Positions 4,124 through 32,374 of a DNA stretch of 64,000 nucleotides are shown piece by piece. Made by a program: the position numbers and the translations under genes. The DNA is taken from assembly GCA_963748405.1 (NCBI GenBank), contig CAVVIT010000010.1, positions 819-64,818 of the forward strand, read 5' to 3'. This stretch comes from Ignavibacteriota bacterium (GTDB lineage: Bacteria; Bacteroidota; Ignavibacteria; UBA10030; UBA6906). The notes under the pieces were generated by a model that saw only the letters and a list, made by a program, of their open reading frames with translations, did not search any database and had not been told where the DNA came from. Numbering within the stretch: the stretch's first letter is position 1; each line of letters begins with the position of its first letter.

Positions 4124-4162
4124 AAAGGCACCACGCCGTATCAGGCGTGGTGCCTTTTTTTT
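4124..4162 (+). terminator. Intrinsic terminator
   Basis: Perfect 14-bp stem AAAGGCACCACGCC / GGCGTGGTGCCTTT with a 6-nt loop, running into a T8 tract, about 30 nt after stop 4091. Confidence 0.9.
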
Positions 4163-4208
4163 GTTGGGAAAATCAGTACATTTGAACTCACCAGTCTTTC
4201 CCCATTCC

Positions 4209-14416: not shown

Positions 14417-15334
14417 ATGCGCAGCATCATAGCACTGCTCCTCATCGTCTGTTCTCTCCCGCTGGAGGCCCAGATCAGCGTGGTGAGCGTCAGGACGCTC
14501 CCCGTCGGGAGCGACCATGCCTGGTCCGCGCCCCGATGGTCGCCCGACGGAAAGACGGTCTACTATACAACCCCGGATTTTGACGGCATATGGGCTTGTC
14601 CGGCTTCCGGAGGGACACCCGTTCAGATAACATCCGACAGAGGAGCGGGGTACGGCTTTGCGATATCGGCCGACGGTTCCCGGATCGCCTGGCGCAGGAC
14701 GCTTCCGGGTGTCCTGCCGGGTGAGCGGCTGCAGGAAGTCGTCGCCAGGGATCTTGCCGGCGGCACCCCGTCTGTTCTTGCCTCGGGAAAATCCCTCTCT
14801 GTCCCTTCATTCGTCAGCGCGGGCGTCGTGTTCACGCTCGGCGGCGATGTTCAGGGCGTGAAGGCGGGCGTGCAGCCTTCGGGCGTCGTGTCGGTCCTCG
14901 GCGTTGAGGACACGAAGATCGCGCTGCTGCGCGACGGTGCAAAGCTCCTCGTCGATCCGCTCGGTAACGGGAGCTACATCTGGCCCTCGCTCTCTCCCGA
15001 CGGCTCGAAGCTCGCAGCGTACGAGATGGACAGGGGGACATTCATCGCCGACGCCGACGGGAGCCATCCTCTGAAGATAGGCCGCCGGGATGCGCCGGCC
15101 TGGACGCGCGACGGAAAGTGGCTCATCTATATGGCGGACAAGGACGACGGCCACGCCGTCAAGTCTTCGGGAATAGCGTTCGTGTCCCCCGACGGAAAGA
15201 CGGAAGGTGACCTCACGTCTGCTTCTCACATCAACGGGATGTTCCCCCAGTGTTCCCCGGTGAGCGACGAGATCGTGTGCAGCACGCTTGAAGGGGCAAT
15301 CCTCGTGATATCGTACGCCGAAACTCCCCGATGA
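14417..15334 (+). CDS. Secreted TolB-like (PD40/WD40-like) beta-propeller protein
   Basis: AGGAG RBS and signal peptide. PRWSPDGK, ISADGSRIAW, PSLSPDGSKLA and PAWTRDGKWL repeats. Confidence 0.82.
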   Translation: MRSIIALLLIVCSLPLEAQISVVSVRTLPVGSDHAWSAPRWSPDGKTVYYTTPDFDGIWACPASGGTPVQITSDRGAGYGFAISADGSRIAWRRTLPGVLPGERLQEVVARDLAGGTPSVLASGKSLSVPSFVSAGVVFTLGGDVQGVKAGVQPSGVVSVLGVEDTKIALLRDGAKLLVDPLGNGSYIWPSLSPDGSKLAAYEMDRGTFIADADGSHPLKIGRRDAPAWTRDGKWLIYMADKDDGHAVKSSGIAFVSPDGKTEGDLTSASHINGMFPQCSPVSDEIVCSTLEGAILVISYAETPR

Positions 15335-17870: not shown

Positions 17871-18809
17871 TTGGCACACCATTCTCTTGTGCTCGGGGTT
17901 GACGGCGGCGGCACCAAGACTCAGGGCCTCCTTGCCGACGGCGCCGGCACGGTCCTCGCGCGCGGCAGGGGAAACGGTTCGAATCAGAACGTGATCGGCA
18001 TCGACAACGCCGCGCTCAATCTCGCCGAGCTCATCGTCAGTCTCGCGAAAACCGCCGCCCGTCCCGTTTCCGACATCGGTTCCGCCGTGCTGGGACTCGC
18101 AGGCGCGGGATCCGCCAGGGATCGCCAGGTTCTCACGGAGGCCGTCCACGCGAGGCTTCGCGCGATGGACCTGCCCGCTGTTCCCATTACCATACAGACC
18201 GACGGTCGCGTCGCGCTTGAAGGAGCGTTCAACGGTGGTCCCGGGGTCGTCGCCGTCGCAGGGACCGGCTCCGTCGTCATGGGGAAATCTCCCGGCGGCG
18301 AGACGCTTTCGATCGGCGGCTGGGGGAGAGTGATCGGAGACGAAGGGAGCGGGTATTTCATCGGCCTGGAGGCCATCAAGGCCGTTTCAAGGGAGATCGA
18401 CGGCAGGGGGGAGGCCGGCCGGCTCCGTGTTGCCCTCTCTTCCCGGTTCGGACTCGAGACCCGCGAGCGTTTCATCGCCGCCGTCTACAGGGAGAAGTTC
18501 GATATCCCCTCGATCGCCCCTGCGGTTCTCGAAGCCGCTGAAGCCGGGGATGCGGTGGCCCTGGGCATACTTTCCCGCGCCTCCGGCGCGCTTGCTCTCC
18601 AGGTCGTTGCCGCCATCGACCGGCTCGGCATGCGGGGCGGGGCCGGCGTCGTGATGATCGGCGGCCTGATCGACCACGAGTCGATATATTCGCTCATGCT
18701 CGCGGCGGAGATCAGGAAATCCGTCCCCGCGGCAAACTTCCACGCACCGATGAACGGACCGGCGCACGGCGCCCTCCTGCTGGCGATTGCCGGCCTGAAG
18801 GGGGATTGA
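17871..18809 (+). CDS. BadF/BadG/BcrA/BcrD-type sugar kinase (MurK / GlcNAc-MurNAc kinase-like)
   Basis: LGVDGGGTKT, GLAGA, VAGTGS and GGWGRVIGDEGSGYFIG. TTG start inferred 5 nt after the upstream stop. Confidence 0.85.
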   Translation: MAHHSLVLGVDGGGTKTQGLLADGAGTVLARGRGNGSNQNVIGIDNAALNLAELIVSLAKTAARPVSDIGSAVLGLAGAGSARDRQVLTEAVHARLRAMDLPAVPITIQTDGRVALEGAFNGGPGVVAVAGTGSVVMGKSPGGETLSIGGWGRVIGDEGSGYFIGLEAIKAVSREIDGRGEAGRLRVALSSRFGLETRERFIAAVYREKFDIPSIAPAVLEAAEAGDAVALGILSRASGALALQVVAAIDRLGMRGGAGVVMIGGLIDHESIYSLMLAAEIRKSVPAANFHAPMNGPAHGALLLAIAGLKGD

Positions 18810-18812
18810 CGG

Positions 18813-21749
18813 GTGAACAGACTCCTCCTCGTGTCCGCCGTCGTTCTCCCGGCGTTCTTTTCTTCCTGCACTCCTCCGCCGGGGACGCTCCCCGCCCAGC
18901 CGTCGAAACGCGCTGCTGCGCCGCCTGCCGCCGTCCTGGCTGAGTGGGGGACCCCGGGCGCTCTCGATACGCTCCTCTCCTCGATGTCCCTCGAGGAAAA
19001 GGTTTCACAGATGGTCATGGTGCGCGCGTTCGGTCATTACTACAGCACCGACAGCGAACTCTTCGAGCGCCTCGAGCGGCTTGTCACGGTCCGGAAGGTC
19101 GGCGGGATCATCATGGCACAGGGGGACGTCTATTCCGAGGCGGTCCTTCTCAACCGGCTCCAGTCCCTCTCCCGTATTCCGCTCCTTGTCGCGTCCGATT
19201 TTGAGCGGGGGATCGCCATGCGCGTCAGGCGCGGGACGCGGTTTCCCGACGCGATGGCCCTCGGGGCGACGCGGAACTCCGAATACGCCTACCGGATGGG
19301 GAAGGCCGTGGCCGTGGAGGCCCGCACGATCGGGATACAGCAGAATTACGCTCCCGTCGCCGACGTCAACGACAATCCCCTCAACCCCGTCATCAACACC
19401 CGCTCGTTCGGCGACGACCCGATGCTCGTGCGGACGATGGTGGGAGCGTTCATCCGGGGGACGATCGACGGGGGCTGTCTTGCCACCGCGAAACATTTTC
19501 CGGGGCACGGGGACACGGGGACGGACTCGCACCTCGACCTGCCGGTCCTGGACCTCACGCGTGCGCGGCTCGACACCGTGGAGCTCGCCGCATTCCGCGC
19601 GGCCGTCGACGCCGGCGTTCAATCGGTGATGATCGGCCACCTCGCGGTCCCGTCGCTCGACTCCCTGGGGCTCCCCGCGTCCCTGTCCGCCCCGATGGTC
19701 AATGACCTTCTCCGGAAACAGATTGGGTTCAAGGGACTGATCGTCACCGACGGGCTGGAAATGCGCGCGCTCACGCGGGGCTACACTCCGGACAGCGTGG
19801 CCGTTCTGGCGGTGCGCGCGGGCGCGGACATACTCCTCGTCCCGCCGGATCCCGACGTCGCCGTCAGCGCCGTCGTGAACGCGGTGAAGCGCGGCGAGAT
19901 CACCGTGGCGCGCGTGAACGAATCGGTCCGCCGCATACTCGCCGTGAAGCACGGGCTCGGGCTCGACAGGAAACGGACCGTGGATATCGACGCGATCGCC
20001 TCGCGCATCGGGACGAGGCCGAACCGGCATCTCGCGCGGGAGATTGCGCGCGACGCCGTCACGCTCCTCAGGAACAAGAACAACCTCCTCCCGCTCTCCC
20101 CCGACGGTCCCGTCCGTATCGTCGCGGTGCTCGCCGGTGACGCGGAAGACGACCGGACGGATGTCGACAGGCCGGGAAGCCCGGCCACGAGCGAGCCCGC
20201 CGGGACCTACTTTGCGCAGCTTCTCCGCCGCCGCTCCGCCGGGGCCGAGATCATCCGACTGTCCCCCGAGAGCGACGCGCGCGATCTGAGCGACGCGGTG
20301 ACGCGCATACGACGGGCGGACGTCGCCCTCCTCTGCCTGCTTGTCAAAGTCCGGACCGCTTCGGGGAAGATCGATCTCCCCGACTACCTGCGGACATTTG
20401 CCTTGAAGGCGGCCGAGACCAACACCCCCCTCGTTGTTCTGGCATTCGGCAATCCGTACATTGCCGGGAACGTTCCCGATGCCGAATCGGTCATGTGCCT
20501 CTACGGCGACGACGAGACTGTGAGCGAGGCGGCGGCGGAGGCGCTTTTCGGCGAGATACCGGTGCACGGCCGTCTCCCGGTCTCCATTCCGGGAAAGTAT
20601 CCGTTTGGGACGGGGCTGGATCTCCCCCAGACGCAGCTCAGGCGGGACGATCCCGCGGTGGCGGGGTTTGATCCCGAGGATCTCCAGCGCGTGGACGCCA
20701 TCGTGACGGCCGCGATCGCCGACTCCGCGTTTCCCGGGGCGCAGGTTGCCGTCATCAAGGACGGCCTTCTTGTGTACGACAGGTCGTTCGGTCATCTGAC
20801 GTACGACCCGGCCTCCCCTCCCGTGGACGAGGGGACGATGTACGATCTGGCATCCGTGACGAAGGTGATTGCGACGACGTCCGCCGTCATGAAGCTCGTC
20901 GACAGCGGAAAGATCGGTCTGGATGACCCGGTTGCGAGGTACATCCCTGCATTCGGCGTGGGTGAGAAGGCCGCAATTACGATCCGCCATCTTCTCCTTC
21001 ACAGGGGGGGATTTCCCCCGTTCCGGCGCCTCTGGCTTGAATGTCCGGGTCCCGGGGGGGTGATCGATACGATCGCCGCCACTCCCCTTGTCGCGGTCCC
21101 GGGCGATTCGACGGTGTACAGCGACCTGGGGTTCATCACGCTCGGGAAGATCGTCGAGAAGGTCTCCGGCGTCCCGCTCGACGCGTTTGTGAAGAGAGAA
21201 TTCTTCGTCCCGCTCCGGATGAGGAATACGATGTACGTCCCGGCGGAATCGCTCCGGTCACGGTGCGCGCCGACGGAGCTTGATTCGGTCTGGCGGAAGA
21301 CGGTCGTGCAGGGGACCGTGCACGACGAGAACGCCGCCTTTCTGGGGGGCGTGTCGGGGAACGCCGGGCTCTTTTCCAGTGCGAGCGATCTTGCGCTCTA
21401 CATGCAGATGCTCTTTAACAACGGGCAGTACGCCGGGAAACGATATATCGGCGAGAAGACCGTCTCGGAGTTCATCGAGAAACGTGCTCCCGGCCAGGAG
21501 CGGTGGCTCGGGTGGGACATGAAATCCCCGCACGGCTCGTCGGCGGGGTCGCTCTTTTCCCCCGAATCATTCGGTCATACCGGGTTCACGGGGACATGCA
21601 TCTGGGCCGATCCGTCGCGTGGGCTTGCCGTGGTATTCCTGACCAACCGCGTGTATCCGACCCGGGCAAATCTCAAGATCGCAAGGGTCCGTCCAGCGGT
21701 GAATGATGCCGTGATGCGGGCTCTCGGCGTCACGGCCGCAGGGGACTGA
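18813..21749 (+). CDS. Lipoprotein GH3 beta-N-acetylglucosaminidase (NagZ-type) fused to a class C beta-lactamase-fold (AmiE-like) serine hydrolase
   Basis: FFSS-C lipobox. KHFPGHGDTGTDSH NagZ signature and VTDGLEM nucleophile. C-terminal LASVTK, YSD, GTVHDENA and GHTGFTG. Confidence 0.92.
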   Translation: MNRLLLVSAVVLPAFFSSCTPPPGTLPAQPSKRAAAPPAAVLAEWGTPGALDTLLSSMSLEEKVSQMVMVRAFGHYYSTDSELFERLERLVTVRKVGGIIMAQGDVYSEAVLLNRLQSLSRIPLLVASDFERGIAMRVRRGTRFPDAMALGATRNSEYAYRMGKAVAVEARTIGIQQNYAPVADVNDNPLNPVINTRSFGDDPMLVRTMVGAFIRGTIDGGCLATAKHFPGHGDTGTDSHLDLPVLDLTRARLDTVELAAFRAAVDAGVQSVMIGHLAVPSLDSLGLPASLSAPMVNDLLRKQIGFKGLIVTDGLEMRALTRGYTPDSVAVLAVRAGADILLVPPDPDVAVSAVVNAVKRGEITVARVNESVRRILAVKHGLGLDRKRTVDIDAIASRIGTRPNRHLAREIARDAVTLLRNKNNLLPLSPDGPVRIVAVLAGDAEDDRTDVDRPGSPATSEPAGTYFAQLLRRRSAGAEIIRLSPESDARDLSDAVTRIRRADVALLCLLVKVRTASGKIDLPDYLRTFALKAAETNTPLVVLAFGNPYIAGNVPDAESVMCLYGDDETVSEAAAEALFGEIPVHGRLPVSIPGKYPFGTGLDLPQTQLRRDDPAVAGFDPEDLQRVDAIVTAAIADSAFPGAQVAVIKDGLLVYDRSFGHLTYDPASPPVDEGTMYDLASVTKVIATTSAVMKLVDSGKIGLDDPVARYIPAFGVGEKAAITIRHLLLHRGGFPPFRRLWLECPGPGGVIDTIAATPLVAVPGDSTVYSDLGFITLGKIVEKVSGVPLDAFVKREFFVPLRMRNTMYVPAESLRSRCAPTELDSVWRKTVVQGTVHDENAAFLGGVSGNAGLFSSASDLALYMQMLFNNGQYAGKRYIGEKTVSEFIEKRAPGQERWLGWDMKSPHGSSAGSLFSPESFGHTGFTGTCIWADPSRGLAVVFLTNRVYPTRANLKIARVRPAVNDAVMRALGVTAAGD

Positions 21750-21750
21750 C

Positions 21751-23100
21751 GTGAAATCTGAACCTGCCATAAGCGTGGGGATACTCACGGCCCCGGCCGT
21801 TGAGTTCGAGGGGGAGTTCGACGCTCCCGGCGCGCAGGGGGGACTCCACGGCCCTGCACGCGCTTCCGTCTCGGGCGGATCCGTGCTGATCGAGTGCGGC
21901 CCCCGGCGGGATGTGCTTGCTTCCGGAGTCCTCCTCACCCCCACCGGCGCTTCAGGGCGCTCGTTCGTCATCCGCGGGGTGACGATAGGGATCAAGTTCC
22001 ACTGGGAGCGGAAAGAGGACCAGCGGTTTACGGGAGCACTCCGGCTTGTGGTGAAAGGGGGGGATGTCGTCGCCGTCAATGTCGTCGCGGTCGAGGACTA
22101 CCTGGCGAGCGTCATCTCGTCGGAGATGAGCGCGGGAAGTTCGCTGAACCTTCTGAAGGCTCACGCGATCACCTCCCGGAGCTGGCTCCTGGCGCAGCTC
22201 GAGCGCTCCGGCGAGCTGAAAGAATGGGTGAAAAAATACAGGTCCACGCTGCGCGAGCCCGGGAAACTCGTCAGGTGGTACGACAGGGAGGAACACGCGC
22301 TCTTCGACGTCTGTGCGGACGACCACTGCCAGAGGTATCAGGGGATCACCAAGTCGACGACTCCCTCGGTCAGCGATGCCGTCGATCAGACCCGGGGACA
22401 GGTGGTGATGCACGATGGCAGGATCTGCGACGCCAGGTTTTCGAAATCCTGCGGGGGGATCACCGAGCCGTTTTCAAAAGTCTGGCAGCCGGTGGATGTT
22501 CCGTACCTGGTGAACGTCGCGGACATTCCTCCTTCCGACCGGCTCCCGGGATATTTGCCCGGGGCCGATGTCAGCAGGGAGGAACACGCGGACAGGTGGA
22601 TCAGGAGCTCGCCTCCGGCGTTCTGTAACACGACCGATGCGCGCATACTCTCGCAGGTCCTCCTCAAATACGACCAGGAGACGACCGATTTCTACCGGTG
22701 GACGGTCGAATACACGCAGGAGTACGTCTCGGCTCTCATAGGGGAGAAAAGCGGCGTCGATTTCGGCGCGATACTCGATATCGCGCCGGTCGAGCGCGGG
22801 CCCTCCGGCCGGCTGACGCTCCTGCGGATCGTCGGTGAGAAGACGACGTTAACCATCGGGAAAGAGCTCGAGATCCGGCGGACGCTTTCACCGTCCCATC
22901 TGTACAGTTCGGCGTTTGTCGTGGAAAAGCACGATGTTGTCGGGCTCATCCCAGGGAAATTTGTGCTCAAAGGGGCCGGCTGGGGTCACGGTGTCGGACT
23001 CTGCCAGATCGGCGCGGCGGTGATGGGTGACCTCGGGTACGCCCCGGAGGCGATACTCGCTCACTACTTCCCCGGCACCTCGGTCACAAAGCTGTACTAG
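21751..23100 (+). CDS. SpoIID/LytB-family lytic transglycosylase, no evident signal peptide
   Basis: VEDYLASVISSEM (catalytic Glu), LKAHAITSRS, DVCADDHCQRYQG, KSCGG and GWGHGVGLCQIGA. Confidence 0.9.
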   Translation: MKSEPAISVGILTAPAVEFEGEFDAPGAQGGLHGPARASVSGGSVLIECGPRRDVLASGVLLTPTGASGRSFVIRGVTIGIKFHWERKEDQRFTGALRLVVKGGDVVAVNVVAVEDYLASVISSEMSAGSSLNLLKAHAITSRSWLLAQLERSGELKEWVKKYRSTLREPGKLVRWYDREEHALFDVCADDHCQRYQGITKSTTPSVSDAVDQTRGQVVMHDGRICDARFSKSCGGITEPFSKVWQPVDVPYLVNVADIPPSDRLPGYLPGADVSREEHADRWIRSSPPAFCNTTDARILSQVLLKYDQETTDFYRWTVEYTQEYVSALIGEKSGVDFGAILDIAPVERGPSGRLTLLRIVGEKTTLTIGKELEIRRTLSPSHLYSSAFVVEKHDVVGLIPGKFVLKGAGWGHGVGLCQIGAAVMGDLGYAPEAILAHYFPGTSVTKLY

Positions 23101-23104
23101 TCCG

Positions 23105-23132
23105 GTCATTGCGATTTTTCAGAAGTCCATTC
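23105..23132 (+). repeat. Possible decayed copy of the TGTC/CGTC repeat
   Basis: GTCATTGCGA...GAAG, 4 nt after stop 23100. The internal hairpin is absent. Confidence 0.35.
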
Positions 23133-23160
23133 TCCACAGATCAGAGGTAGCATACATCGT

Positions 23161-24954
23161 ATGAATAACATTCGTGTCAGCACCCACGTTGCGCCGATCC
23201 TCCTGGCGCTCGTCCTTTCTCTGGTAGTGACTTCCTCCGCCGTTTCCCAGCCGGCCCCGGCCGCGCGCCCCAATTTCGTCCGGCTCGTCGTTCCCGAGGC
23301 CGACACGGTCCAGGCCTCTTCGCTCACGTACCGGCTTTCGGCGGGGACGCTCCCCGGGAACAAACTCACGATCAACGGAACTCCGCTGAAGGTGTACCCT
23401 TCGGGAGCGACCGCAGGGCTCCTGATGCTGAACGTCGGCGAGAATCGCTTCACGCTGACCGCGACGACCCCCAGGGGGGACTCCGTGTCGAAGTCGTTCC
23501 TCGTCGTGCGGGAGAAGCCGGCGGAAACGACGCCTGATTCCTCTCTGGCCATCGATACGACCATGAGCGAGCCGTCGGAAGACCTCTGGCTGAACGAAGA
23601 TGACCGGCTCGAAGTGCAGTTCAAAGGGACCCCGGGACGCATCCCGTCGAATGACCTGGGCATCCCGATGACGGAAGTGAAGCCCGCCTACGCGCACGGC
23701 CTCGGAGGGATCTACCGCGGCGTCTACACGGTGCGCGACGACGACACCCTCTCGGCACACCCGGTCAGGTTCCGGCTGCAGGACTCCACGGGGGCATACG
23801 TGGAGTGCACCTCGAAGGGAGCCGTCACGATGCGGCCCGGGGACTTCCCGTACATCGGCATCACGAAGGGTGAGCGTCCGGCCCTTGCGTACGGGCTGGG
23901 CGATGACCGGCTCGGAGGAGCCAAAATGTCGTTCATCAACTCCGGGATCCGCCTCGCCATTACGGGGAAGCACGGCAGCATGTACCGGGTCGGTCTGGCT
24001 CCGGGGCACGAAGCCTGGATCGCCGCCGCAAACGTCGATCTCATCCCCAGGGGGGCGCGCCTTCCCTCCGCGCTGACGGAAAACTGGAACGTGTATGGCG
24101 ACGAGAAGTTCGACTATGTGAGCGTGGGGATCCCCCTGCGGCTTCCGTATTCTTCGACGACCGAATCCGATCCGTCGCGCATCAATGTCGACGTCTACGG
24201 TGCGACGTCCAACACGAACTGGATCATACAGCAGCTCACGACCCGCGAGATCAAGAACGTGTACTACACCGAGCCCTCCGCGGGCGTCTTCCGGATCACG
24301 ATCGAGCTGAAGCACAAACAGATCTGGGGCTACGAAATCGCCTATAACCCGGCCGGGCTCGTCATCAAAGTCCGCCGCCAGCCGGAGAAGCTCAAGATCA
24401 AGGCGCTCACGTTCGCCCTCGACGCGGGTCACGGGGGGGAAAACCTGGGTGCGCTCGGCTCCACCGGCGCCCTCGAGAAGGAGATCAACCTCGCGGTGGT
24501 GAAGGACCTGAAGGCGATACTCGAGGACAGGGGCGCCAGGGTCATCCTGACCAGGGACAGCGACGCCGACGTCACGATGGCCGACCGGGTCAGGAAGGTG
24601 GTGACCTCGAGTGCCGACATTCTGATCAGCGTGCACTCCAATTCCATCGGGCTGACAACAAACCCGGAATTGACCCGGGGGACCGCGACGTTCTACAAGC
24701 ACATCTGCTATCGTCCGCTCGCGCTGGCGATCGTCAGGCAGATGCTCAAAACGGGACTTCCCCTGTTCGGAAACGTGGGGAGCTTCAACTTCTCCCTGAA
24801 CGCCCCGACGGAGCTTCCCAACGTTCTTGTCGAGATGGCGTTCGTTTCGAACCCCTCCGACGAAATGAACCTGATCGACCCGGAGTTCCGTCACACAATC
24901 GCCGAACACATCGTCGACGGCGTTGACGATTTCCTCGATGCGTGCGATGAGTAA
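23161..24954 (+). CDS. Periplasmic N-acetylmuramoyl-L-alanine amidase (C-terminal Amidase_3)
   Basis: Signal peptide. ALDAGHGG, EKEINL, LTRD, ISVHSNS and VLVEMAFVSN. No CTD. Confidence 0.9.
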   Translation: MNNIRVSTHVAPILLALVLSLVVTSSAVSQPAPAARPNFVRLVVPEADTVQASSLTYRLSAGTLPGNKLTINGTPLKVYPSGATAGLLMLNVGENRFTLTATTPRGDSVSKSFLVVREKPAETTPDSSLAIDTTMSEPSEDLWLNEDDRLEVQFKGTPGRIPSNDLGIPMTEVKPAYAHGLGGIYRGVYTVRDDDTLSAHPVRFRLQDSTGAYVECTSKGAVTMRPGDFPYIGITKGERPALAYGLGDDRLGGAKMSFINSGIRLAITGKHGSMYRVGLAPGHEAWIAAANVDLIPRGARLPSALTENWNVYGDEKFDYVSVGIPLRLPYSSTTESDPSRINVDVYGATSNTNWIIQQLTTREIKNVYYTEPSAGVFRITIELKHKQIWGYEIAYNPAGLVIKVRRQPEKLKIKALTFALDAGHGGENLGALGSTGALEKEINLAVVKDLKAILEDRGARVILTRDSDADVTMADRVRKVVTSSADILISVHSNSIGLTTNPELTRGTATFYKHICYRPLALAIVRQMLKTGLPLFGNVGSFNFSLNAPTELPNVLVEMAFVSNPSDEMNLIDPEFRHTIAEHIVDGVDDFLDACDE

Positions 24955-25540
24955 AGTTCCGCCTCCGGGCGTCCGCGCGTCGATCCGGCCCTGGACGATC
25001 GGAGATCTCCCCGACGTCCGCCGCATCGGGTGGGAGACGTGGAAAGCGACGTACGGCAGGTTCATCCCCGAGGAGGACCTGCGGGCGTATCACGACGAGC
25101 ATTATTCGGCCGGGGCGCTCGAGCGCAACTTCCGGAGGCCCTCCACCCGCGGGTATGTGGCGCTCCTTGACGGAAAGACGGTCGGCTATATGATCATGTC
25201 GTTCGACCGGGAGTCGGGGCGATGCCACGTGGCGTCAATCTACGTGCTCCCGGGCAGCCAGGGACACGGCCTCGGATCGATGCTCATGAGGGAGGCGTTC
25301 AGCGCGGCCCGCCAGTCGGAGTACGACCGCGTCTGGCTCGGCGTCATGTCCGAAAACGCACCGACGCTCGCCTGGTATAAAGCTCTCGGTTTCGCATTTG
25401 TCGAAGAGGCCCCCTTTACGATGGGAAACACCACCGTCAATCACCTGATCGGATACAGGCTGCTCGTTCCGCCGGTTCCGCCGCCTGGTCCTCCACCTGC
25501 TCCCGCTGACGGAAAGAGACCGGCGCATGAATCGACCTGA
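24947..25540 (+). CDS. GNAT family N-acetyltransferase
   Basis: ETWKATY, IYVLPGSQGHGLGSML (acetyl-CoA motif) and N...LAWYKALGF. Confidence 0.85.
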   Translation: MSKVPPPGVRASIRPWTIGDLPDVRRIGWETWKATYGRFIPEEDLRAYHDEHYSAGALERNFRRPSTRGYVALLDGKTVGYMIMSFDRESGRCHVASIYVLPGSQGHGLGSMLMREAFSAARQSEYDRVWLGVMSENAPTLAWYKALGFAFVEEAPFTMGNTTVNHLIGYRLLVPPVPPPGPPPAPADGKRPAHEST

Positions 25541-26804
25541 ACGGCGCAATCCCTGGGTCTGGATTCCCTCCCTCTACTTTGCCGAAGGGCTGCCGTACGT
25601 TGTCGCCCTGAACGTTTCGGTGATCATGTACAAGCGGATGGGCATATCGAACACGGATATCGCCCTCTACACGAGCCTGCTCTACCTTCCGTGGGTGATC
25701 AAGCCGCTCTGGGGACCGGTCGTGGACCTTGTCCGCACGAAGCGGCTCTGGATCGTCACGCTTCAGCTCATCCTGGGCATCGCGCTCGCCGCGGTCGCGC
25801 TCACGATCCCCGTGCCGGGGTTCTTCCGCGCCACGCTCGTCCTGTTCTGGCTCATGGCGTTTGCCTCCGCCACGCACGACATCGCGGCGGACGGCTTCTA
25901 CATGCTCGGGCTGAAGGAGCACGAGCAGGCGGCGTTCGTGGGGGTGAGGTCGACGTTCTACAGGATCGCGATGGTCACCGGGCAGGGGGCTCTCGTGTTC
26001 TTTGCGGGGACGGTCGAGACGCGCTCCGGGGGGAATACGGCGCTGGCCTGGTCGATGACCTTCGGCATACTCGCCGCAATGTTCATCGCCTTCTTTCTCT
26101 ATCACCGGTTCATGCTTCCGTACCCCGCCGCCGACGTCCAGGTGCGGGGCGGCGGAGGGACACCCCCGCTGGCGGATTTCTTCAAGGTCTTCCGGGCGTT
26201 CTTTACCAAACCCGGGATACTTTCGATCCTGGCATTCCTTCTCCTCTACAGGTTCGCCGAATCGCAGCTCATCAAGCTCGTCTCCCCGTTCCTTCTCGAC
26301 CCCCGGACGAAGGGAGGGCTGGGGCTCACCACGAGCGAGGTGGGGATCGTCTACGGGACGGTCGGGATCGCCGCGCTGACGGCCGGCGGGCTCGTCGGGG
26401 GGTTCGTCATTCCGCGCAGGGGACTGAAGTTCTGGCTCTGGCCGATGGTCATCGTGATGCATCTGCCGGACCTGATGTTCGTCTATCTCTCGCAGGCGCA
26501 GCCGGGGAGTTTTCTGCTCATCAACGTGGCCGTGGCCTTCGAGCAGTTCGGGTACGGTTTCGGCTTTACCGCGTACATGCTCTACATGATCATGGTCTCC
26601 GAGGGGGAGCACAAGACCGCGCATTACGCCATCTGCACGGGGATCATGGCTCTCGGGATGATGGTCCCCGGGATGTTCAGCGGCGCCCTCCAGGAATGGC
26701 TCGGTTATCCGAATTTTTACCTCTGGGTGATGCTCTCCACGATCCCCGGATTCGTCGTCACAGCGCTCATCACCATCGATAAAGACTTCGGCAAGAAAAC
26801 CTGA
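25527..26804 (+). CDS. ampG: AmpG-family muropeptide MFS permease
   Basis: [37 protein letters not shown] and LLLYRFAES. About 12 transmembrane segments. Confidence 0.8.
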
Positions 26805-26814
26805 GGGAATCCTG

Positions 26815-28308
26815 ATGAAACGTTCTTCGAAGAACCCCGCTGCAGGGGAGAAACCTCTCTTTACCGCGTTCGTTCCCTACGGCGGAAACGAGGCGACGGA
26901 ATACACGGTCGCACAGCTTGTCGGATCGCCCATCGTGGGAAAAGTCTACGTTCTCACGCCGGGGGACGCTCCTGTCCCGTTCAGGGGGGCCGTGCCTCTC
27001 CGCGTCAATGCGCTGAAATCCGCCTCGACGATGAAGAAGATTGCGGCGAAGACCGCGACTCCCTGCGCGCTGCTCATTCTGCACGACGTCGCGCTCCAGT
27101 TCGGGCAGTTCGCCCTGGAGCGGATGGCCTCGGTCGCGGACTCGACGGGGGAGGGGATGGTCTACAGCGATTTCATCGAAGTGAAGGGTCCCTCGCCGGC
27201 TCCCCATCCCCTGATCGACTACCAGGAAGGGAGCGTGCGCGACGATTTTGACTTCGGCTCCGTCGTCGTCCTGGAGGCGTCCGCGCTGAAAGCGGCGGCC
27301 AGGGAGATCGGCAGCTCGCGGCACGCGGGCTTTTATGCGCTCCGGCTGGCCATCGCCAGGAAGAAGGGAGTGTTCAGGATCGCCGAGACGCTCTACACGA
27401 AAACCGAGCTCGACACGCGGAAGGAAGGGGCGAAGCTCTTCGATTACGTCGATCCGAAGAACCGCGTCGTGCAAGTCGAAATGGAGAAAGCCGTCACGCA
27501 GCACCTGAAGAAGGCCGGTGCCTGGCTGAAGCCCGTCAGGGAAACGGTCGACCTGGACGAGGGAAAGTTTGCCGTCACCGCGTCGATCATCATCCCCGTG
27601 CGCAACCGGGCGAATACGATCGGCGATGCCGTGGCTTCGGCGCTGCACCAGCAGGCGTCGTTCGCGTTCAACGTGATCGTCGTGGACAACCACTCGACCG
27701 ACGGAACCTCCGAGATTCTCAAGACATTCGCCGCGCGGGACCGGAGGCTCGTCCACCTCGTCCCGTCGCGGACGGACCTCGGGATCGGCGGGTGCTGGAA
27801 CGAGGCCGTGCATCATCCCGCCTGCGGCCGGTTCGCCGCCCAGCTCGACAGCGACGACCTGTACGCCGACGAATCGACGCTCAACAAGATCGTGGACCGT
27901 TTCCGGAAGGACAGGTGCGCGATGGTCGTCGGCACGTACCGGATGACCGATTTCAAGCTCCAGGAGATCCCGCCGGGTGTGATCGATCACAGGGAATGGA
28001 CGCCGGACAACGGCCCCAATAACGCGCTCCGGGTCAACGGGTTCGGCGCCCCCCGGGCGTTCTTCACGCCGGTTCTCCGGCGGGTGAACATTCCGAACGT
28101 CAGCTACGGCGAGGACTACGCGGTGGGGCTGGCGGTGTCGCGCCGGTACCGCATCGGCCGGATCTACGAGCCGATTTATCTCTGCCGCCGGTGGGAAGGA
28201 AACTCCGACGCGGACCCCGGGATCGCGAAAATGAACCTGAACAACTGGTACAAGGACAAAGTCCGGACGATCGAGATCCGGGCGCGTCGGCTCAGGCGTC
28301 CGCTCTGA
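26815..28308 (+). CDS. Glycosyltransferase family 2 with an extra N-terminal GT-A-like domain
   Basis: [28 protein letters not shown] (DxD) and YGEDY. The N-terminal part contains MVYSDF and DFDFGS. Confidence 0.88.
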
Positions 28309-28334
28309 TCACCACAAACCGTTCATCGCGAACC

Positions 28335-29357
28335 ATGGAACCCTCGATCCAGCGCGTGCTGATCTCGGACCGCGAGCTTGACCTCCGCGGCGGAAGCGAC
28401 CTTGCTTCGCGTGCGCACTTTCTCCTGCGGCAGCAGAAGGAGACGTGGCCCCTCCTCCGTGCCGGCTACGAGGGGCTCTCGGGCGTCCGGACCCGCACGA
28501 TCGACCTCGATGACGGCTTCGGCGTCCGTCTCCAGTGGAACCCCGCCCGGATCGTCTCCTCCTCGGCAAACGTCGACCCGGAGGCGATACGCCGCCGGAA
28601 ATGCTTCCTCTGCCCCGACAATCTCCCCCCCGAACAGCGGGGAATCCTCTTCGGGGGAAGCTACCTGGTTCTCTGCAACCCGTTCCCGATATTCCAGGAG
28701 CATTTCACGATCCCGCACACCTCCCACACCCCCCAGCGGATCGGCACCTCGATCGGGACGATGCTCGACCTGGCGCAGGCGATGCACAAACGGTATACCC
28801 TCATCTACAACGGTCCCCGGAGCGGCGCCTCGGCGCCGGACCATCTGCATTTTCAGGCGGGGGAGAAGGGGTTCCTTCCCCTCGAGGCGGACATCGACCG
28901 TCTCATCGGGGAGGGGGAGATTCTCGTCGACGAGAAGATGCTCCACGCCGTTGCGGTGGATGCCCAGCTCCGGCGGTACATCGCCCTGAGGTCCCACGAC
29001 AGGGAGTCGCTCATCGTCGCGTTCCGGGCCGTGGAATCGTCGTTTGCCGGAGCCGCGGAAGCCGTCGAGGAGCCGATGATGAACGTCCTGGCGTGGTTTG
29101 ATCAGGGGGCGTGGACTGTCCTGGCCTTCCCCCGTGCGAAGCACAGGCCCTCGATGTATTTCGCCCAGGGGGAGGCGAAGATCCTGATAAGTCCCGCCGC
29201 GGTCGACTGCGGCGGAGTGCTCATCACGCCGCTGGAGAAGGATTTCCAGTGCCTTACCGCGGATCACATCAGGGAGATGTTCGATGAGATTTTTCTCCCT
29301 CCCCCGGCGTTCAAGGAGGTCCGGGCGCGTCTCGCCGGGAATCTCACGCCGCGCTGA
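28335..29357 (+). CDS. DUF4922 HIT-fold protein (Ap4A phosphorylase / GDP-hexose phosphorylase-like)
   Basis: QWNPARIVSS, CFLC, LCNPFPIF..HFTI, YNGP..GASAPDHLHFQ (HxHxQ) and FPRAKHRP. Confidence 0.82.
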   Translation: MEPSIQRVLISDRELDLRGGSDLASRAHFLLRQQKETWPLLRAGYEGLSGVRTRTIDLDDGFGVRLQWNPARIVSSSANVDPEAIRRRKCFLCPDNLPPEQRGILFGGSYLVLCNPFPIFQEHFTIPHTSHTPQRIGTSIGTMLDLAQAMHKRYTLIYNGPRSGASAPDHLHFQAGEKGFLPLEADIDRLIGEGEILVDEKMLHAVAVDAQLRRYIALRSHDRESLIVAFRAVESSFAGAAEAVEEPMMNVLAWFDQGAWTVLAFPRAKHRPSMYFAQGEAKILISPAAVDCGGVLITPLEKDFQCLTADHIREMFDEIFLPPPAFKEVRARLAGNLTPR

Positions 29358-29402
29358 GAAGCGGCCCGACAGGCCGGTCATCAATCATCCCTCGGGTATC
29401 CC

Positions 29403-30095
29403 ATGAAGAAGATCGGACTTGTGGGCGGCATCGGCCCCGAATCGACGCTCGATTACTACAGGAACATCACCGGCGCATTCCGGGATTCGTACGAAACGAC
29501 CGGGTTCCCCGAGATCGTCATCGAGAGCATCGACCTGAAGAATTTCAACGCCCTCGTCGAAGCGGGGAAGTGGGAGTCCGTGATCCAGCTCGTGTCGTTC
29601 AAGTGCGGGCTGCTCAGGCGGTGCGGAGCTGAAATCGGCGCGATGGCCTCCAATACCCCCCACGCCGTCTTTGACGCGATACAGGCGAAGACCGACCTCC
29701 CCCTCATCAGCATCGTGGCGGTCACGGTCGACTATGCCCGGACGCTCAACGTCCGGTCGCTCTGCCTCCTGGGCACGAAGTTCACGATGACGTCCGATTA
29801 CTATCAGGACGAATTCGACAAGTACAATATCCGGCTCACCACCCCTGAGCCGGAGGAGATCGACCGCATCCAGCACATACTCTTCAAAGAAGTCGAGCTC
29901 GGCGTCATCAGGGAAAAGTCGCGCGCCGAGCTTGTCGCGATCATCAACAGGATCAGGAAAACGGCGGGGGTCGAAGGGGTGATACTCGGGTGCACCGAGC
30001 TTCCGCTTATCCTCTCGCAGAAGGACCTGGCGCTCCACTGCATCAATCCGTCCCGGATTCACGTCGACGCGCTTGTGAAGGAGAGCATCTCGTGA
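29403..30095 (+). CDS. Aspartate/glutamate racemase family protein (RacX/YgeA-like)
   Basis: IGLVGGIGPESTLDYY, ASNTPH, LLGTKFTM and ILGCTELP. Confidence 0.9.
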   Translation: MKKIGLVGGIGPESTLDYYRNITGAFRDSYETTGFPEIVIESIDLKNFNALVEAGKWESVIQLVSFKCGLLRRCGAEIGAMASNTPHAVFDAIQAKTDLPLISIVAVTVDYARTLNVRSLCLLGTKFTMTSDYYQDEFDKYNIRLTTPEPEEIDRIQHILFKEVELGVIREKSRAELVAIINRIRKTAGVEGVILGCTELPLILSQKDLALHCINPSRIHVDALVKESIS

Positions 30096-30120
30096 CGACG
30101 ACCGGGTTCCCCTGACCGGA

Positions 30121-31383
30121 TCACCGGTCGGCGGAAGCCCTGCGCCTGAACGCCAGGTGCACGCCCGTCGCCCCCAGCAGGCAGAAGACCCCGCCGGCCT
30201 GGAGCGCAAACCCCGACGACGTGTGGGAGGCGACGAGTCCCATCCAGAAGCTGCCGATCGGCATTCCCCCGCCGAAGACGAGCGCCCATATCCCCATCAG
30301 CCGCCCCCGGAGGTGATCGGGCGAATGCGTCTGTATGATGCTGTTCCCGATCGAGGCAAACAGGATGATGCCGAACCCGGCGAAGACGATGAAGAATCCC
30401 GCCCCGACGATGCCGTGCATGAAGCCGAAGAGGAATATGAATGCGCCGAATATACCCGCCCCGGCATACATCGATCTGACCTGAACGAGCCGTTGCCCCT
30501 GCGCGGCCACGGTGAATGCGGCCGTACACGCCCCAAGCCCGTTCAGGGCCAGCACCCAGCCGTAGCCCCGCGCGTCCGCGTTGAGTTGCGTGACGACGAA
30601 CGCCGAAAGCTGGGATTGGTACGCCCAGCCCCCCACCCCGATGAAGAACAGCAGTGCGACGGCCGTGGCCAGCTCCGGGTTTGTCCCGAGGTAGCGCAGC
30701 CCCTCGAGCGTGTACCTCAAGTCGGCCCGCGCCTTGTTCGGCGCGTAGTGGGATGCCGGGAGCTGAATCCTGTGAATCGCGTAGAGAACCGCCGAATAGC
30801 TTGCGGCGTCCAGCAGAAAGCACCAGGCCGATCCGAACGAGGCCAGGAGGATGCCGGCGAGGGCCGGGCCGATGACCCGGGTGGAATTCACCATGGCGCT
30901 GTTGAGCGCGATGGCATTCACAAGATCCTTCTTGCCGACGAGCTCGACCATGAGCGTCTGCCGCGAGGGCATCTCAAATGTCGTCGAGAGTCCCCAGAGG
31001 AACGAGAAGGTCATGAGATACGCGATGTGCACGGGACCGCGGAAGAGCATGACGGCGAGTGTGAGCGACGAGAGCATCGAAAACCAGCTCGTCCAGGTGA
31101 ATATCCGGATTTTGGGAATGCGGTCGGCAAGCGCACCCGCAAACAGGGCGAAGATGAACATGGGAAGCGTGTTGAGCATGAACACGATCCCCAGCAGGAG
31201 CTCGGAATGGGTGAACTGGAATGAAACCCACCCGAGCGCGGCGGTGCGGATCCACGTGCCGATCAGCGAAACGGTCTGCCCGGAGTAGAAATACCGGTAG
31301 TTGGGATTGCGGAGTGCGGAGAAGATTCTCTTCCAGCCTTCGGGCCGGGCCGGGTCTGCGCTTGAAGCGGGAACAGGGATCAC
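30121..31383 (-). CDS. MFS transporter (EntS/DUF894-like efflux type)
   Basis: FSALRNPNYR, GQTVSLIGTW, AGALADR, NAIALNS and RGRLMG. 12 transmembrane segments. Confidence 0.88.
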   Translation of the reverse strand: MIPVPASSADPARPEGWKRIFSALRNPNYRYFYSGQTVSLIGTWIRTAALGWVSFQFTHSELLLGIVFMLNTLPMFIFALFAGALADRIPKIRIFTWTSWFSMLSSLTLAVMLFRGPVHIAYLMTFSFLWGLSTTFEMPSRQTLMVELVGKKDLVNAIALNSAMVNSTRVIGPALAGILLASFGSAWCFLLDAASYSAVLYAIHRIQLPASHYAPNKARADLRYTLEGLRYLGTNPELATAVALLFFIGVGGWAYQSQLSAFVVTQLNADARGYGWVLALNGLGACTAAFTVAAQGQRLVQVRSMYAGAGIFGAFIFLFGFMHGIVGAGFFIVFAGFGIILFASIGNSIIQTHSPDHLRGRLMGIWALVFGGGMPIGSFWMGLVASHTSSGFALQAGGVFCLLGATGVHLAFRRRASADR

Positions 31384-31396: not shown

Positions 31397-32191
31397 CTAT
31401 CGAAGAATGATGAGGCGTTTTGTCCCGGCGTAGCTTCCCGCCACCAGCCTGTAGAAGTAGACGCCTGTTGCGAGCTTCGCGCCGTCGAGTCTCACCAGGT
31501 GATACCCTGCGTCCTCTTCGCCGTCCACCAGTGTGGCGACCTTCCGGCCTGTCAGGTCGAACAGCGTCAACGTGACGTGTGACTTCCGGGGGATGCCGTA
31601 CCGGATCGTCGTCGAGGGGTTGAACGGGTTGGGGAAATTCTGGTCAACCTGCACGCTCTGGGGCACTCCCCCCGGAATGGCATCGAGCGACGTCACGACC
31701 GTGGTAAAATCGATGCCGACCCCCCATTCCTCAAGTATCCCCATCCTGTCCACTGAATGATTCGTAATCCTGAGAATCCACAGTCCCGTGGCGTCAGTCC
31801 CGGTGAACTGTGCGAGCGACCTTGCCGGCTGAAACGTTCCCGTGAACGGAGGCGCACCCTGTGACACCGGCACGGCCGCCGTGTCGTCAAACATCGTGTG
31901 CGTGAAATCTGCGCCGCTGAATCCGAGCCCGTGAACAAGCGAGTCGTTCACCCCGGCGTGGATAAGGGAGATGTCCAGCGCCTCGTCCTGGGGGAAGTCG
32001 ATGCTGTCGATCCTGACCGAGACGCTTTGAACGATTCTCCTGAGCCCCGGATCAGGGGGGAAGAACCCGAGCGTATCGGACGTGGTCTTTCCCGGGGAGA
32101 TCACCCGTTGAAGTCCGGTTCTGAGCAATTGCGCGGCTGCGGAAGCTTCCGCGACGAACAGCCCGATGAGTAAGAACATGACAACACGCAT
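31397..32191 (-). CDS. Small T9SS cargo with proprotein-convertase P-domain-like fold and CTD
   Basis: Signal peptide. LDISLIH, FDD.A, LAQFTGTDATGLWILRI and GILEEW (P-domain). QNFPNPFNPST CTD. Confidence 0.78.
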   Translation of the reverse strand: MRVVMFLLIGLFVAEASAAAQLLRTGLQRVISPGKTTSDTLGFFPPDPGLRRIVQSVSVRIDSIDFPQDEALDISLIHAGVNDSLVHGLGFSGADFTHTMFDDTAAVPVSQGAPPFTGTFQPARSLAQFTGTDATGLWILRITNHSVDRMGILEEWGVGIDFTTVVTSLDAIPGGVPQSVQVDQNFPNPFNPSTTIRYGIPRKSHVTLTLFDLTGRKVATLVDGEEDAGYHLVRLDGAKLATGVYFYRLVAGSYAGTKRLIILR

Positions 32192-32374
32192 ACACGCTCT
32201 CCCTGCAATCACTCCTGCGGCGGCGCCGGACCGTCCTGTCCCTCCCCTGACCCGGTTTGTCCCTCTGCGTTTGGAAGTGTGCCTCTCATATTCTACACTT
32301 CCGGGGCCACATAATCAAAGGACCCGAGGGTCCATGACTCTGCCCCCCGCCGACGGGGCGACGACCCGGACGTT

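Follow-up and report, generated by a model that had tools for sequence, protein, structure and literature searches.

The question raised here is what a soluble glycosyltransferase and a HIT-fold protein might do at the end of a peptidoglycan operon in a 64,000-nucleotide stretch of an Ignavibacteriota bacterium genome (GenBank assembly GCA_963748405.1, contig CAVVIT010000010.1, positions 819 to 64,818 of the forward strand; this whole stretch is hereafter the window). Nine tightly spaced genes (window 15331-29357, + strand; neighbours overlap or lie no more than about 60 nt apart, per the open reading frame (ORF) listing and Pfam/NCBIfam) include those for a SpoIID/LytB-like protein, an AmpG-like permease, a two-domain family 2 glycosyltransferase (GT2) and a DUF4922 protein. 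The first-pass annotation had claimed that AmpG is followed by the two-domain GT2 and an HLHFQ-bearing HIT-fold protein within a degradative operon, the latter two without signal peptides; Pfam and NCBIfam scans confirmed the arrangement, and both proteins were found to have neither signal peptides nor membrane segments. Our reading, to which we give a probability of roughly three in four, is that the GT2, the DUF4922 protein and the SpoIID-like protein (together, the module) make up a cytoplasmic unit that processes muropeptide sugars by nucleoside-diphosphate-sugar (NDP-sugar) and sugar-1-phosphate chemistry.

To follow the linkage between these genes, DUF4922 was scanned with one genome per species, yielding 575 confirmed loci, of which the best 80 by similarity, which are not independent of one another, were analysed. 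These 80 come from Bacteroidota (Bacteroides, Dysgonomonas, Draconibacterium, Marinilabilia, Ignavibacteria, Balneolales and Chitinophagales), Acidobacteriota, Verrucomicrobiota and Planctomycetota. Per tblastn with the window proteins, the GT2 lies on the same strand and at most 400 nt upstream of DUF4922 in 70 of the 80, and likewise in 67 of the 74 loci having at least 1600 nt of upstream flank; in the ORF lists the stop and the start often overlap or are separated by a few bases. Seven loci depart from this: five are of the Ignavibacteria type, one has the GT2 8.5 kb away and one has an intervening GNAT gene; a GT4 gene stands in place of the GT2 at both Ignavibacteria-type exceptions that were examined (L010 and L019). 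Five loci had no GT2 in the flank, and a full-length GT2 was found elsewhere in the genome in all five cases. Where at least 5 kb was available on both sides (56 loci), SpoIID was found in 42, AmpG in 34, both in 32 and either in 44. The first-pass annotation had named these families as neighbours in Bacteroides too, and the loci bear this out: GT2-DUF4922-SpoIID-AmpG occurs in Bacteroides records that include L022, L032, L037, L041, L060, L071 and L075.

For whole genomes the sample was 301 members of the window's phylum with a completeness of 90% or more, and the same picture emerged. DUF4922 was found in 50 of them. These 50 all have the GT2 too, as do two further genomes that share a genus, and 249 carry neither. 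The SpoIID subtype was present in all 50 (split at contig ends in one), in a shorter form in those two, and as one partial match elsewhere. AmpG-like matches at E<=1e-30 were retrieved from 40 of the 50 module genomes versus 56 of the 251 others, counts from which long insert variants may be missing. This strict three-way co-occurrence, usually with adjacency, shows that GT2, DUF4922 and SpoIID form a conserved unit. The first-pass annotation had made its proposal depend on a conserved linkage of DUF4922, GT2, SpoIID and AmpG, and the linkage is conserved in both surveys; its wider proposal, a route from muropeptide sugars to nucleotide sugars, is partly supported. The two genomes with a GT2 and a shorter SpoIID-like gene (G079:C22:51501-53911 and G123:C1; 2.0-2.3 Mb, one genus) are a natural variant without the HIT enzyme, DUF4922 not being found in them at E<=1e-20; their SpoIID-like gene has no N-terminal region, and it is adjacent to the GT2 in G079 and about 275 kb from it on one contig in G123.

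Beyond what had been proposed at first, SpoIID is not just a neighbour of the other two but is fused to them in cytoplasmic polypeptides. A total of 7982 proteins of at least 596 aa match DUF4922 at E<=1e-3, and among the best 120 of these, 104 are 1200-1399 aa long, 14 are 700-899 aa and two are 600-699 aa. Pfam scans gave the order N-domain and GT2 (about 252-390), DUF4922 (about 503-650), SpoIID (about 917-1040) in four of four long forms, DUF4922-SpoIID in three of three shorter fusions and GT2-DUF4922 in two of two; the domain order of the fusions is the gene order of Bacteroides. All 104 long forms keep the DxD (LD[ST]DD) and [YF]GED[YF] motifs of the GT2, the RDDF of its N-domain, the HxHxQ of the HIT domain and the SSEM of SpoIID, and 102 of them keep DDHCQ. 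Independently, the ESM Atlas holds triple-fusion clusters of 70-331 members and double-fusion clusters of 56-233, the recorded taxa being all Bacteroidota. None of nine fusions had a 19-residue window with a Kyte-Doolittle mean of at least 1.9 or a signal-like N-terminus. Because a SpoIID domain is thus fused to GT2 and DUF4922 without an export signal, the "lytic transglycosylase" of the operon would be cytoplasmic and part of the same machine.

The window's own SpoIID-like protein agrees with this placement. No start earlier than 21751 is possible for it, no signal peptide or hydrophobic N-terminus was found in it, and its N-terminal residues (...EPAISVGIL...) form the conserved strand that in the fusions lies inside the chain; the anchor or signal peptide that goes with an extracytoplasmic SpoIID/LytB protein is therefore absent. 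Its E125 aligns with the catalytic E101 of Clostridioides difficile SpoIID and H192-C193 with H145-C146, the catalytic Glu and zinc site of the latter being described in the accessible text of PMC6221140. Of 172 aligned rows, which include two fusions without a SpoIID domain, 170 keep E125 and at least 169 keep C188, H192 and C193. Judged by sequence, the SpoIID-like enzyme is predicted to be a cytoplasmic partner of GT2 and DUF4922 with its catalytic motifs kept, not an envelope autolysin.

These observations bear directly on the default expectation that the three proteins have separate ordinary jobs and are mere neighbours, namely an envelope lytic transglycosylase, a GT2 for polysaccharide or protein glycosylation and an Ap4A-type phosphorylase. 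That expectation matches the default annotations and the Ap4A phosphorylase II naming of some DUF4922 homologues in JGI records, and the counterpart operon of Tannerella forsythia is called "glycosylation related" in the accessible portion of PMC5388701. We consider it scarcely credible, given that all 50 DUF4922 genomes carry the GT2 and the SpoIID subtype and only two of 301 have the GT2 without DUF4922, that single-chain fusions are widespread, that neither the SpoIID-like protein nor the fusions have an export signal, and that the identity of the GT2 across phyla is high (50-60%), unlike that of surface-glycan transferases.

The DUF4922 protein matches PF16269 at 187.6 bits in the Pfam scan (gathering cut-off 23.6), and precomputed domain lists add PF26216, named GDPGP1_C in the ESM Atlas. 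H170, H172 and Q174 of its HLHFQ motif, within SAPDHLHFQAG, are invariant in 18 of 18 aligned homologues. HxHxQ is the mark of the nucleotidyl-transferring branch of HIT proteins, and the matches to Apa2 and GalT agree with it: the DUF4922 profile matches the yeast Ap4A phosphorylase Apa2 (4i5t, E 5.2e-5) with HxHxQ aligned to DHKHLQ, and a Foldseek search with the AlphaFold2 model (predicted local distance difference test (pLDDT) score 86.9; predicted template-modelling (pTM) score 0.90), which shows a two-lobed HIT-like fold, returned Apa2 first (E 3.2e-10, TM 0.54-0.65), followed by a DUF4931 structure, then GalT and the Arabidopsis ADP-glucose phosphorylase (E about 1e-4), and more weakly by small HIT proteins. 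Sequence identity to the solved structures is 10-17%. Orthologues of the GDP-D-glucose phosphorylase GDPGP1 are made up of the DUF4922 Pfam domain, according to the part of PMC7041677 that is accessible. The domain name also turns up in two plant papers about GDP-L-galactose phosphorylase. The first-pass placement in the nucleotidyl-transferring HIT branch is thus supported by the profile match, the fold matches and the GDPGP1 domain, and by sequence and model the protein belongs to the GDPGP1/VTC2/Apa2 branch of HIT enzymes, a branch that handles NDP-sugars and phosphate. Some JGI records label DUF4922 homologues "ATP adenylyltransferase / Ap4A phosphorylase II".

The GT2 matches PF00535 at residues 257-387 (80 bits, cut-off 23.3), and no Pfam match was found on residues 1-250. 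All 18 aligned sequences share D345-S-D-D348 (the DxD motif) and Y431-G-E-D-Y435 (containing E433-D434) in the C-terminal domain, and likewise D119, R142-D143-D144-F145 and F209-D-Y-V-D-P214 in the N-domain and linker. The N-domain (about 1-250) is GT-A-like and folds with confidence in the AlphaFold2 model (pLDDT 73.2 for the protein), with D119 and RDDF invariant and without an established canonical DxD. Foldseek placed tandem GT-A enzymes first, namely K4 chondroitin polymerase (K4CP) and heparosan synthase 2, then LH3 and COLGALT1. Structure alignment of the C-domain (VIA-align) gave a Z of 18.7 and a root-mean-square deviation of 3.2 over 208 residues for WrtF, and Z values of 16-18 for RmlT, TarP, TarS and SpsA, only residues 251-497 being effectively compared. 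Homologues of the GT2 are full-length and unusually conserved, with about 60% identity among the matches listed; tblastn across phyla gave 48-60% identity in full-length matches and up to 73% in partial ones. Residues 1-250 were also searched against 1.84 billion representatives, and 773 clusters were retrieved at E<=1e-3. Among the 150 best of them the N-domain lies at or near the N-terminus and the lengths fit the GT2, its double or triple fusions or fragments; judged from lengths alone, no other architecture for the N-domain was evident in these 150.

The surroundings of the module suggest what the unit acts upon. In most Bacteroidia-type genomes the module sits with an importer and degradative enzymes for denuded glycan, and the genes found near it encode NamZ, a MurQ-like SIS protein, amidases, NlpC/P60 proteins, a D-lactate-dehydrogenase-like oxidase and RlpA-like DPBB proteins. 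Bacteroides loci run from a Golvesin_C-domain protein (about 1015-1023 aa) through a Metallophos/beta-propeller protein, GT2 and DUF4922 to SpoIID, AmpG, NamZ, an FAD/Fe-S oxidase of the D-lactate dehydrogenase type and an HGSNAT-like membrane protein. At L022:3579-8498 and L071:3466-8496, the Golvesin_C protein and a 621-aa metallophosphoesterase fused to a PQQ-like beta-propeller precede the module; a possible counterpart of the Golvesin_C protein is the "xanthan lyase" encoded in the T. forsythia operon.

This neighbourhood is already in print for Tannerella. In the accessible text of PMC5388701, Tanf_08345-08385 of T. forsythia form one transcript with two "gtf" genes, lytB, ampG and ybbC (now namZ1), then murTKQ. 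The functions of Tanf_08350 and Tanf_08355 are called unknown, and Tanf_08360 a putative lytic transglycosylase, in the available part of bioRxiv 10.1101/2021.12.02.470905. T. forsythia AmpG imports GlcNAc-MurNAc (N-acetylglucosamine linked to N-acetylmuramic acid) and GlcNAc-anhMurNAc (its 1,6-anhydro form), both peptide-free, and GlcNAc-anhMurNAc supports growth (PMC7670621, accessible sections). A paralogous BadF-type MurNAc kinase lies next to the cluster (PMC10465942, likewise in part), and glmS, glmU, murA and murB are reported missing from the organism in the accessible text of PMC5790795. No paper assigning a function to bacterial DUF4922, to this GT2 or to a cytoplasmic SpoIID was found in a search that left most subscription journals outside; relative to searchable papers, three things appear to be new: to which family the second "gtf" is assigned, how strictly the three genes co-occur, and the fusions placing SpoIID in the cytoplasm.

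For the chemistry we put forward, tentatively and at somewhat less than even odds, a phosphorolytic breakdown of imported GlcNAc-(anh)MurNAc mediated by a nucleotide sugar. The adjacent AmpG would import peptide-free GlcNAc-MurNAc and GlcNAc-1,6-anhydroMurNAc, on which the three cytoplasmic enzymes would act. The GT2 would run against its usual direction (glycoside + NDP -> NDP-sugar + aglycone), and the HIT enzyme would swap nucleoside monophosphate for phosphate (NDP-sugar + Pi -> sugar-1-phosphate + NDP), with the NDP-sugar as a channelled intermediate shared by the two. Such an intermediate is proposed because it is the sole chemistry common to a Leloir-type glycosyltransferase and a GDPGP1-type HIT enzyme, and since a free-running NDP-sugar phosphorylase would waste UDP-sugars, the obligatory pairing or fusion with a glycosyltransferase makes sense if the NDP-sugar is channelled. 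NDP would then cycle as a cofactor, so that the net result would be an ATP-free phosphorolysis of the beta-1,4 muropeptide linkage, a disaccharide phosphorylase sum reaction that needs none of the ATP spent in the NagK route. GlcNAc-1-P, and possibly MurNAc-1-P, would result, ready for uridylyltransferases of the GlmU/MurU type. The SpoIID-like enzyme may supply or consume the 1,6-anhydroMurNAc end, either by cutting imported oligomers to disaccharides or by opening or transferring the anhydro sugar. Outside the cytoplasm the amidases and a lipoprotein in which NagZ is fused to a PBP4B-like domain would prepare the substrate, and inside it the BadF kinase would phosphorylate free sugars, followed by the MurQ encoded elsewhere in the genome.

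The same families could also be read anabolically, which we regard as unlikely yet a serious contender. DUF4922 would turn a sugar-1-phosphate into an NDP-sugar, either through phosphorolysis in reverse with NDP or through a GalT-like exchange with another NDP-sugar. The two GT-A domains (with a GT4 in some lineages) would use it to assemble a cytoplasmic oligosaccharide or muropeptide derivative, or to glycosylate one anew, for the SpoIID-like enzyme to trim; in T. forsythia, which is reported in PMC5790795 to lack glmU, this could be the missing way to UDP-GlcNAc. Leloir glycosyltransferases normally run forwards, the fold relative GalT is a transferase and not a phosphorylase, a GT4 recurs beside the SpoIID-like gene, and by Foldseek the GT2 resembles bifunctional copolymer synthases, all of which fit an anabolic role. 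Set against this, no acceptor, lipid carrier, flippase or export genes were found beside the module in the loci read, most contexts hold uptake and degradation genes, the family nearest to DUF4922 in sequence (GDPGP1/VTC2, Apa2) is one of phosphorylases, and the window's genome has MurA and a GlmU-type domain and hence no gap to fill.

The window's genome, which is 99.2% complete, was inventoried for the known recycling enzymes. No match to AnmK (PF03702) was found in it, MurQ scored above its cut-off, and DUF4922 is single-copy. A convincing AmgK-type APH was not evident in this genome, the APH-family matches being weak (at most 26.8 bits for a single stretch, the best of them inside ORFs of 800-900 aa) and lying mostly in ORFs of 600-940 aa. 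The first-pass description of the route as unrelated to AmgK/MurU holds at the family level (a HIT fold versus NTP-transferase/APH). Since MurA is present, together with a GlmU-type uridylyltransferase domain (240 bits, N-terminal half only), the module would here be an accessory salvage system and not the sole route to precursors. Across the 301 genomes, 22 carry both AnmK and the module, 28 the module alone, 181 AnmK alone and 70 neither, 63 of these 70 belonging to one family; AnmK is missing from 56% of module genomes versus 7 of the 188 module-less genomes outside that family, all of these figures coming from genomes that are kin. A strict either/or pattern of AnmK and module was considered and rejected, because 22 of 50 module genomes carry both. 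In the Bacteroides thetaiotaomicron control genome DUF4922, SpoIID/LytB and AmpG match and AnmK does not. In family f7, where the module is present in 17 of 17 genomes, all seven genomes with AnmK are among the eight without an AmpG-like match (E<=1e-30), and the nine with AmpG are all without AnmK, which hints at two alternative uptake and processing set-ups around one module.

These counts invite the idea that the module opens 1,6-anhydroMurNAc independently of AnmK. The SpoIID-like enzyme would run its transglycosylation backwards, passing MurNAc to a GlcNAc-type acceptor, and the N-terminal GT-A domain would then free NDP-MurNAc, or MurNAc-1-P after DUF4922 has acted. We think it decidedly improbable. 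It would account for the want of an AnmK match in the window's genome, in the B. thetaiotaomicron control (which has DUF4922, SpoIID and AmpG) and in 28 of 50 module genomes, as compared with 70 of 251 module-less ones, 63 of them in one family; the lytic transglycosylase domain, which keeps its catalytic residues and is predicted to be cytoplasmic, and the presence of two GT-A domains, which would match the two linkages of the glycan, are also in keeping with it. The AnmK counts overstate the signal because the genomes are related, however, and the 22 module genomes that also carry AnmK, together with two genomes of the window genome's order that have neither AnmK nor the module, speak against it. 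In addition, we know of no lytic transglycosylase working in that direction in cells.

Taken to its extreme, and very much as a long shot, the fused GT-A'/GT2-HIT-SpoIID protein might be a reverse glycan synthase: GlcNAc-anhMurNAc + UDP + phosphate -> UDP-MurNAc (or MurNAc-1-P) + GlcNAc-1-P, with no ATP. The energy would come from the 1,6-anhydro ring, as stored by lytic transglycosylases, and from the beta-1,4 linkage, with one GT-A domain per linkage and the SpoIID domain working backwards. If true, the anhydro end would have a physiological purpose, and there would be an explanation of how the MurNAc-auxotrophic, glmU-less Tannerella and the AnmK-less Bacteroides feed on their neighbours' cell walls.

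Several points weigh against a muropeptide-processing unit with phosphorolytic chemistry. SpoIID and AmpG are both missing from the vicinity in 12 of the 56 well-flanked loci, an AmpG-like match at E<=1e-30 is absent from 10 of the 50 module genomes, and outside the phylum a close orthologue of the SpoIID subtype was found in only two of five genomes tested, with a divergent SpoIID in one and a distant one or none in two. A short GH3 NagZ without a signal peptide lies close downstream of DUF4922 in L024 and L001, and L001 also has a NamZ without a signal peptide; a NagZ-like gene is directly 3' of DUF4922 in L023, L024 and L036, the signal peptide being checked among these in L024, where it is absent. 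A signal-less NagZ beside the module means that cytoplasmic hydrolytic cleavage coexists with it. Likewise, the coexistence of AnmK with the module in 22 of 50 genomes means that the module is no simple AnmK substitute. The low-GC genomes and the Ignavibacteria-labelled loci differ in context (GT4, regulators, RlpA-like gene). A reverse Leloir reaction on an ordinary beta-glycoside is thermodynamically uphill, so that the phosphorolysis step must pull it. The substrate, the nucleotide and the direction are all assigned by inference, and Tanf_08350/08355 are equated with GT2/DUF4922 by gene order and not by sequence.

The contexts that differ are as follows. The Cyclonatronaceae locus contains a MurQ-like SIS protein, an amidase, an NlpC/P60 protein, two NamZ (one without a signal peptide) and a 354-aa NagZ without a signal peptide, and the Acidobacteriota and Melioribacteraceae loci have a divergent RlpA-like DPBB gene upstream. 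A GT4 gene (Glycos_transf_1) is directly 3' of the SpoIID-like gene at L010:8759-9937, L019:8814-9947, L105:7298-8413 and L107:7347-8462, lying between SpoIID and DUF4922 in two of these four; L105 and L107 are from low-GC genomes, and L010 and L019 are labelled Ignavibacteria. GT4 was considered as a fourth universal partner and rejected, the best match in the window's genome being 28% identical and NCBIfam giving no specific family for the GT4. In three low-GC genomes the GT2-DUF4922 pair has regulatory genes for neighbours, namely a PAS histidine kinase, a sigma-54 response regulator and a PP2C response regulator; the SpoIID-like gene is elsewhere, and a GT4 follows it in two of these genomes. 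The flanks of GT2-DUF4922 in L108, L109, L110, L002 and L012 all hold a PAS histidine kinase and a sigma-54-dependent response regulator, and a response-regulator-PP2C (SpoIIE-type) phosphatase lies there too, except in L002, where it was not seen; an RlpA-like DPBB gene is on the other side of the pair in L002, L012 and L110. These two-component neighbours suggest regulated expression outside the AmpG operon type.

The features of the window are given in Table 1. The first-pass description of the locus stood, while its start for DUF4922 (28191) did not, and the operon begins about 6.4 kb further upstream than had been given: 28191 opens the longest ORF, and the ATG at 28335 yields the 340-aa database protein. 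Opposite-strand genes flank the operon on both sides (before 15331 and after 29357). The closest solved structure to the BadF-type kinase is a MurNAc/GlcNAc kinase (8zo3, E 1e-31). The NagZ-PBP4B protein scores under the cut-offs of NF002968 and NF003740, and its N-terminus (...LLLVSAVVLPAFFSSC) is lipoprotein-like, so that it is predicted to be an extracytoplasmic lipoprotein. We would like to note that the permease is classed as AmpG-like, TIGR00901 being its best-scoring family at 173.5 bits versus a cut-off of 350; this cut-off is exceeded in none of the 301 phylum genomes, and Bacteroidota matches all score below it. Muropeptide import has been proven functionally for the T. forsythia protein. 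The protein is 40-77% identical to AmpG-like genes of related loci, and its full-length matches in named Bacteroides records are 49-58% identical. AmpG-like genes adjacent to the module often encode 613-634 aa versus about 425 (L067:12334-14193, L053:12364-14205, L066:4869-6770, L024:6484-8388 and L072:15144-17006), and the insert of about 190 aa between the two MFS halves of these long variants lowers their TIGR00901 score. GNAT adjoins AmpG in L006 and sits between GT2 and DUF4922 in L066.

Upstream of the operon are a GHL10 gene, which is also found 3' of AmpG in the Marinilabilia locus L072 (17195-18712), and a gene of the mandelate-racemase/muconate-lactonizing family, of which the L-Ala-D/L-Glu epimerases of murein-peptide recycling are members. 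For the two genes downstream, a link to the operon is not evident.

Table 1. Genes of the peptidoglycan operon, in order, and other features of the window
Feature	Coordinates	Strand	Evidence and remarks
Secreted N-acetylmuramoyl-L-alanine amidase; Amidase_3 + Big_5 + type IX secretion system (T9SS) C-terminal sorting domain; operon gene 1	15331..17865	+	Pfam, NCBIfam; signal-like hydrophobic N-terminus
BadF/BcrAD-type sugar kinase, MurNAc/GlcNAc-kinase-like	17871..18809	+	PF01869 136.9 bits; start 17871 TTG or 17889 GTG
GH3 NagZ-like beta-N-acetylglucosaminidase fused to PBP4B/AmpH-like beta-lactamase-fold domain	18813..21749	+	PF00933 291 bits, PF00144 226 bits
SpoIID/LytB-like lytic-transglycosylase-fold protein	21751..23100	+	PF08486 78 bits; TIGR02669 159.7 bits (cut-off 83.3)
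AmiC-like amidase, AMIN + Amidase_3, periplasmic, signal peptide	23161..24954	+	PF01520 120 bits; hydrophobic N-terminus
GNAT N-acetyltransferase	~24938..25540	+	PF00583 73 bits; start 24938 or 24947 (ATG)
AmpG-like MFS muropeptide permease	25527..26804	+	TIGR00901 173.5 bits, top family, under curated 350
Soluble two-domain glycosyltransferase GT2, 497 aa	26815..28308	+	PF00535 80 bits
DUF4922 / GDPGP1-like HIT-fold protein, 340 aa, last gene	28335..29357	+	PF16269 E 1.5e-55; convergent with 29385-30209 (-)
GHL10 (glycosyl hydrolase-like 10) protein with Ig/fn3 domains	4161..6581	+	
Mandelate-racemase/muconate-lactonizing family enzyme	7683..8966	+	
MFS_3/EntS-like exporter	30121..31383	-	
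Small T9SS-sorted protein with P_proprotein-like domain	31397..32212	-	

The textbook account of peptidoglycan recycling is built on Proteobacteria, and the cytoplasmic fate of AmpG cargo in Bacteroidota, which include dominant gut commensals and T. forsythia, a periodontal pathogen, is not settled. Two genes of the best-studied operon have been labelled "glycosyltransferases of unknown function" since 2017. If the two "gtf" and the "LytB" are one cytoplasmic unit, fused in thousands of proteins, they become a defined and clonable enzyme system. A phosphorolytic route through a nucleotide sugar, if true, would be the first case of a glycoside phosphorylase built out of a Leloir transferase plus a HIT phosphorylase and the first cytoplasmic role of a SpoIID-type enzyme. 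It would also be a new step to reckon with in cross-feeding on cell-wall debris, in muropeptide signalling to the host and in the fosfomycin or beta-lactam responses of Bacteroidota. Reverse-transfer chemistry, if true, could be categorically new biochemistry.

Among known systems, the AmpG-NagZ-AnmK-MurQ recycling of the Escherichia coli type shares with the window an AmpG-type importer and a class of cargo, and MurQ is present in the window's genome. In contrast, NagZ and a PBP4B-like domain form a single predicted lipoprotein in the window, the genome gave no AnmK match, and no glycosyltransferase, HIT enzyme or cytoplasmic SpoIID enzyme takes part in the E. coli-type pathway. The AmgK/MurU route of Pseudomonas and T. 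forsythia likewise leads from a recycled amino sugar through a sugar-1-phosphate to a UDP-sugar; it uses an APH-type kinase and an NTP-transferase at the cost of ATP and UTP, whereas the window's module has GT-A and HIT folds. A further counterpart is the T. forsythia operon, whose gtf-gtf-lytB-ampG-namZ order is the GT2-DUF4922-SpoIID-AmpG-NamZ order of Bacteroides L022 and L071, and which also holds a xanthan-lyase-like gene, murT, murK and murQ. The window's operon differs in gene order and in having two amidases, NagZ-PBP4B and GNAT, and the accessible portions of the T. forsythia papers give no fusion, cytoplasmic location or HIT assignment for these genes.

The individual proteins also have well-known relatives. 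With the SpoIID of Bacillus and Clostridioides and the chlamydial SpoIID homologue, the window protein shares its catalytic Glu, and also the HC portion of the zinc site of C. difficile. The SpoIID proteins known so far have a membrane anchor and work on the sacculus, whereas the window subtype has no anchor, is fused to cytoplasmic enzymes in other genomes and carries about 100 additional conserved residues in its N-terminal region. Two GT-A-like domains in one soluble chain, as in the GT2, are found in E. coli K4 chondroitin polymerase and Pasteurella heparosan synthase 2 and also in LH3 and COLGALT1, which are tandem GT-A proteins with one accessory domain; the window GT2 is much shorter (497 aa), and its N-domain is without a Pfam match. 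Finally, VTC2/VTC5, GDPGP1, Apa2 and GalT have in common with the window's HIT protein the DUF4922 and GDPGP1_C domains, an aligned HxHxQ and the fold, and what distinguishes the bacterial DUF4922 subfamily from all of these is that it is always paired with, or fused to, the GT2.

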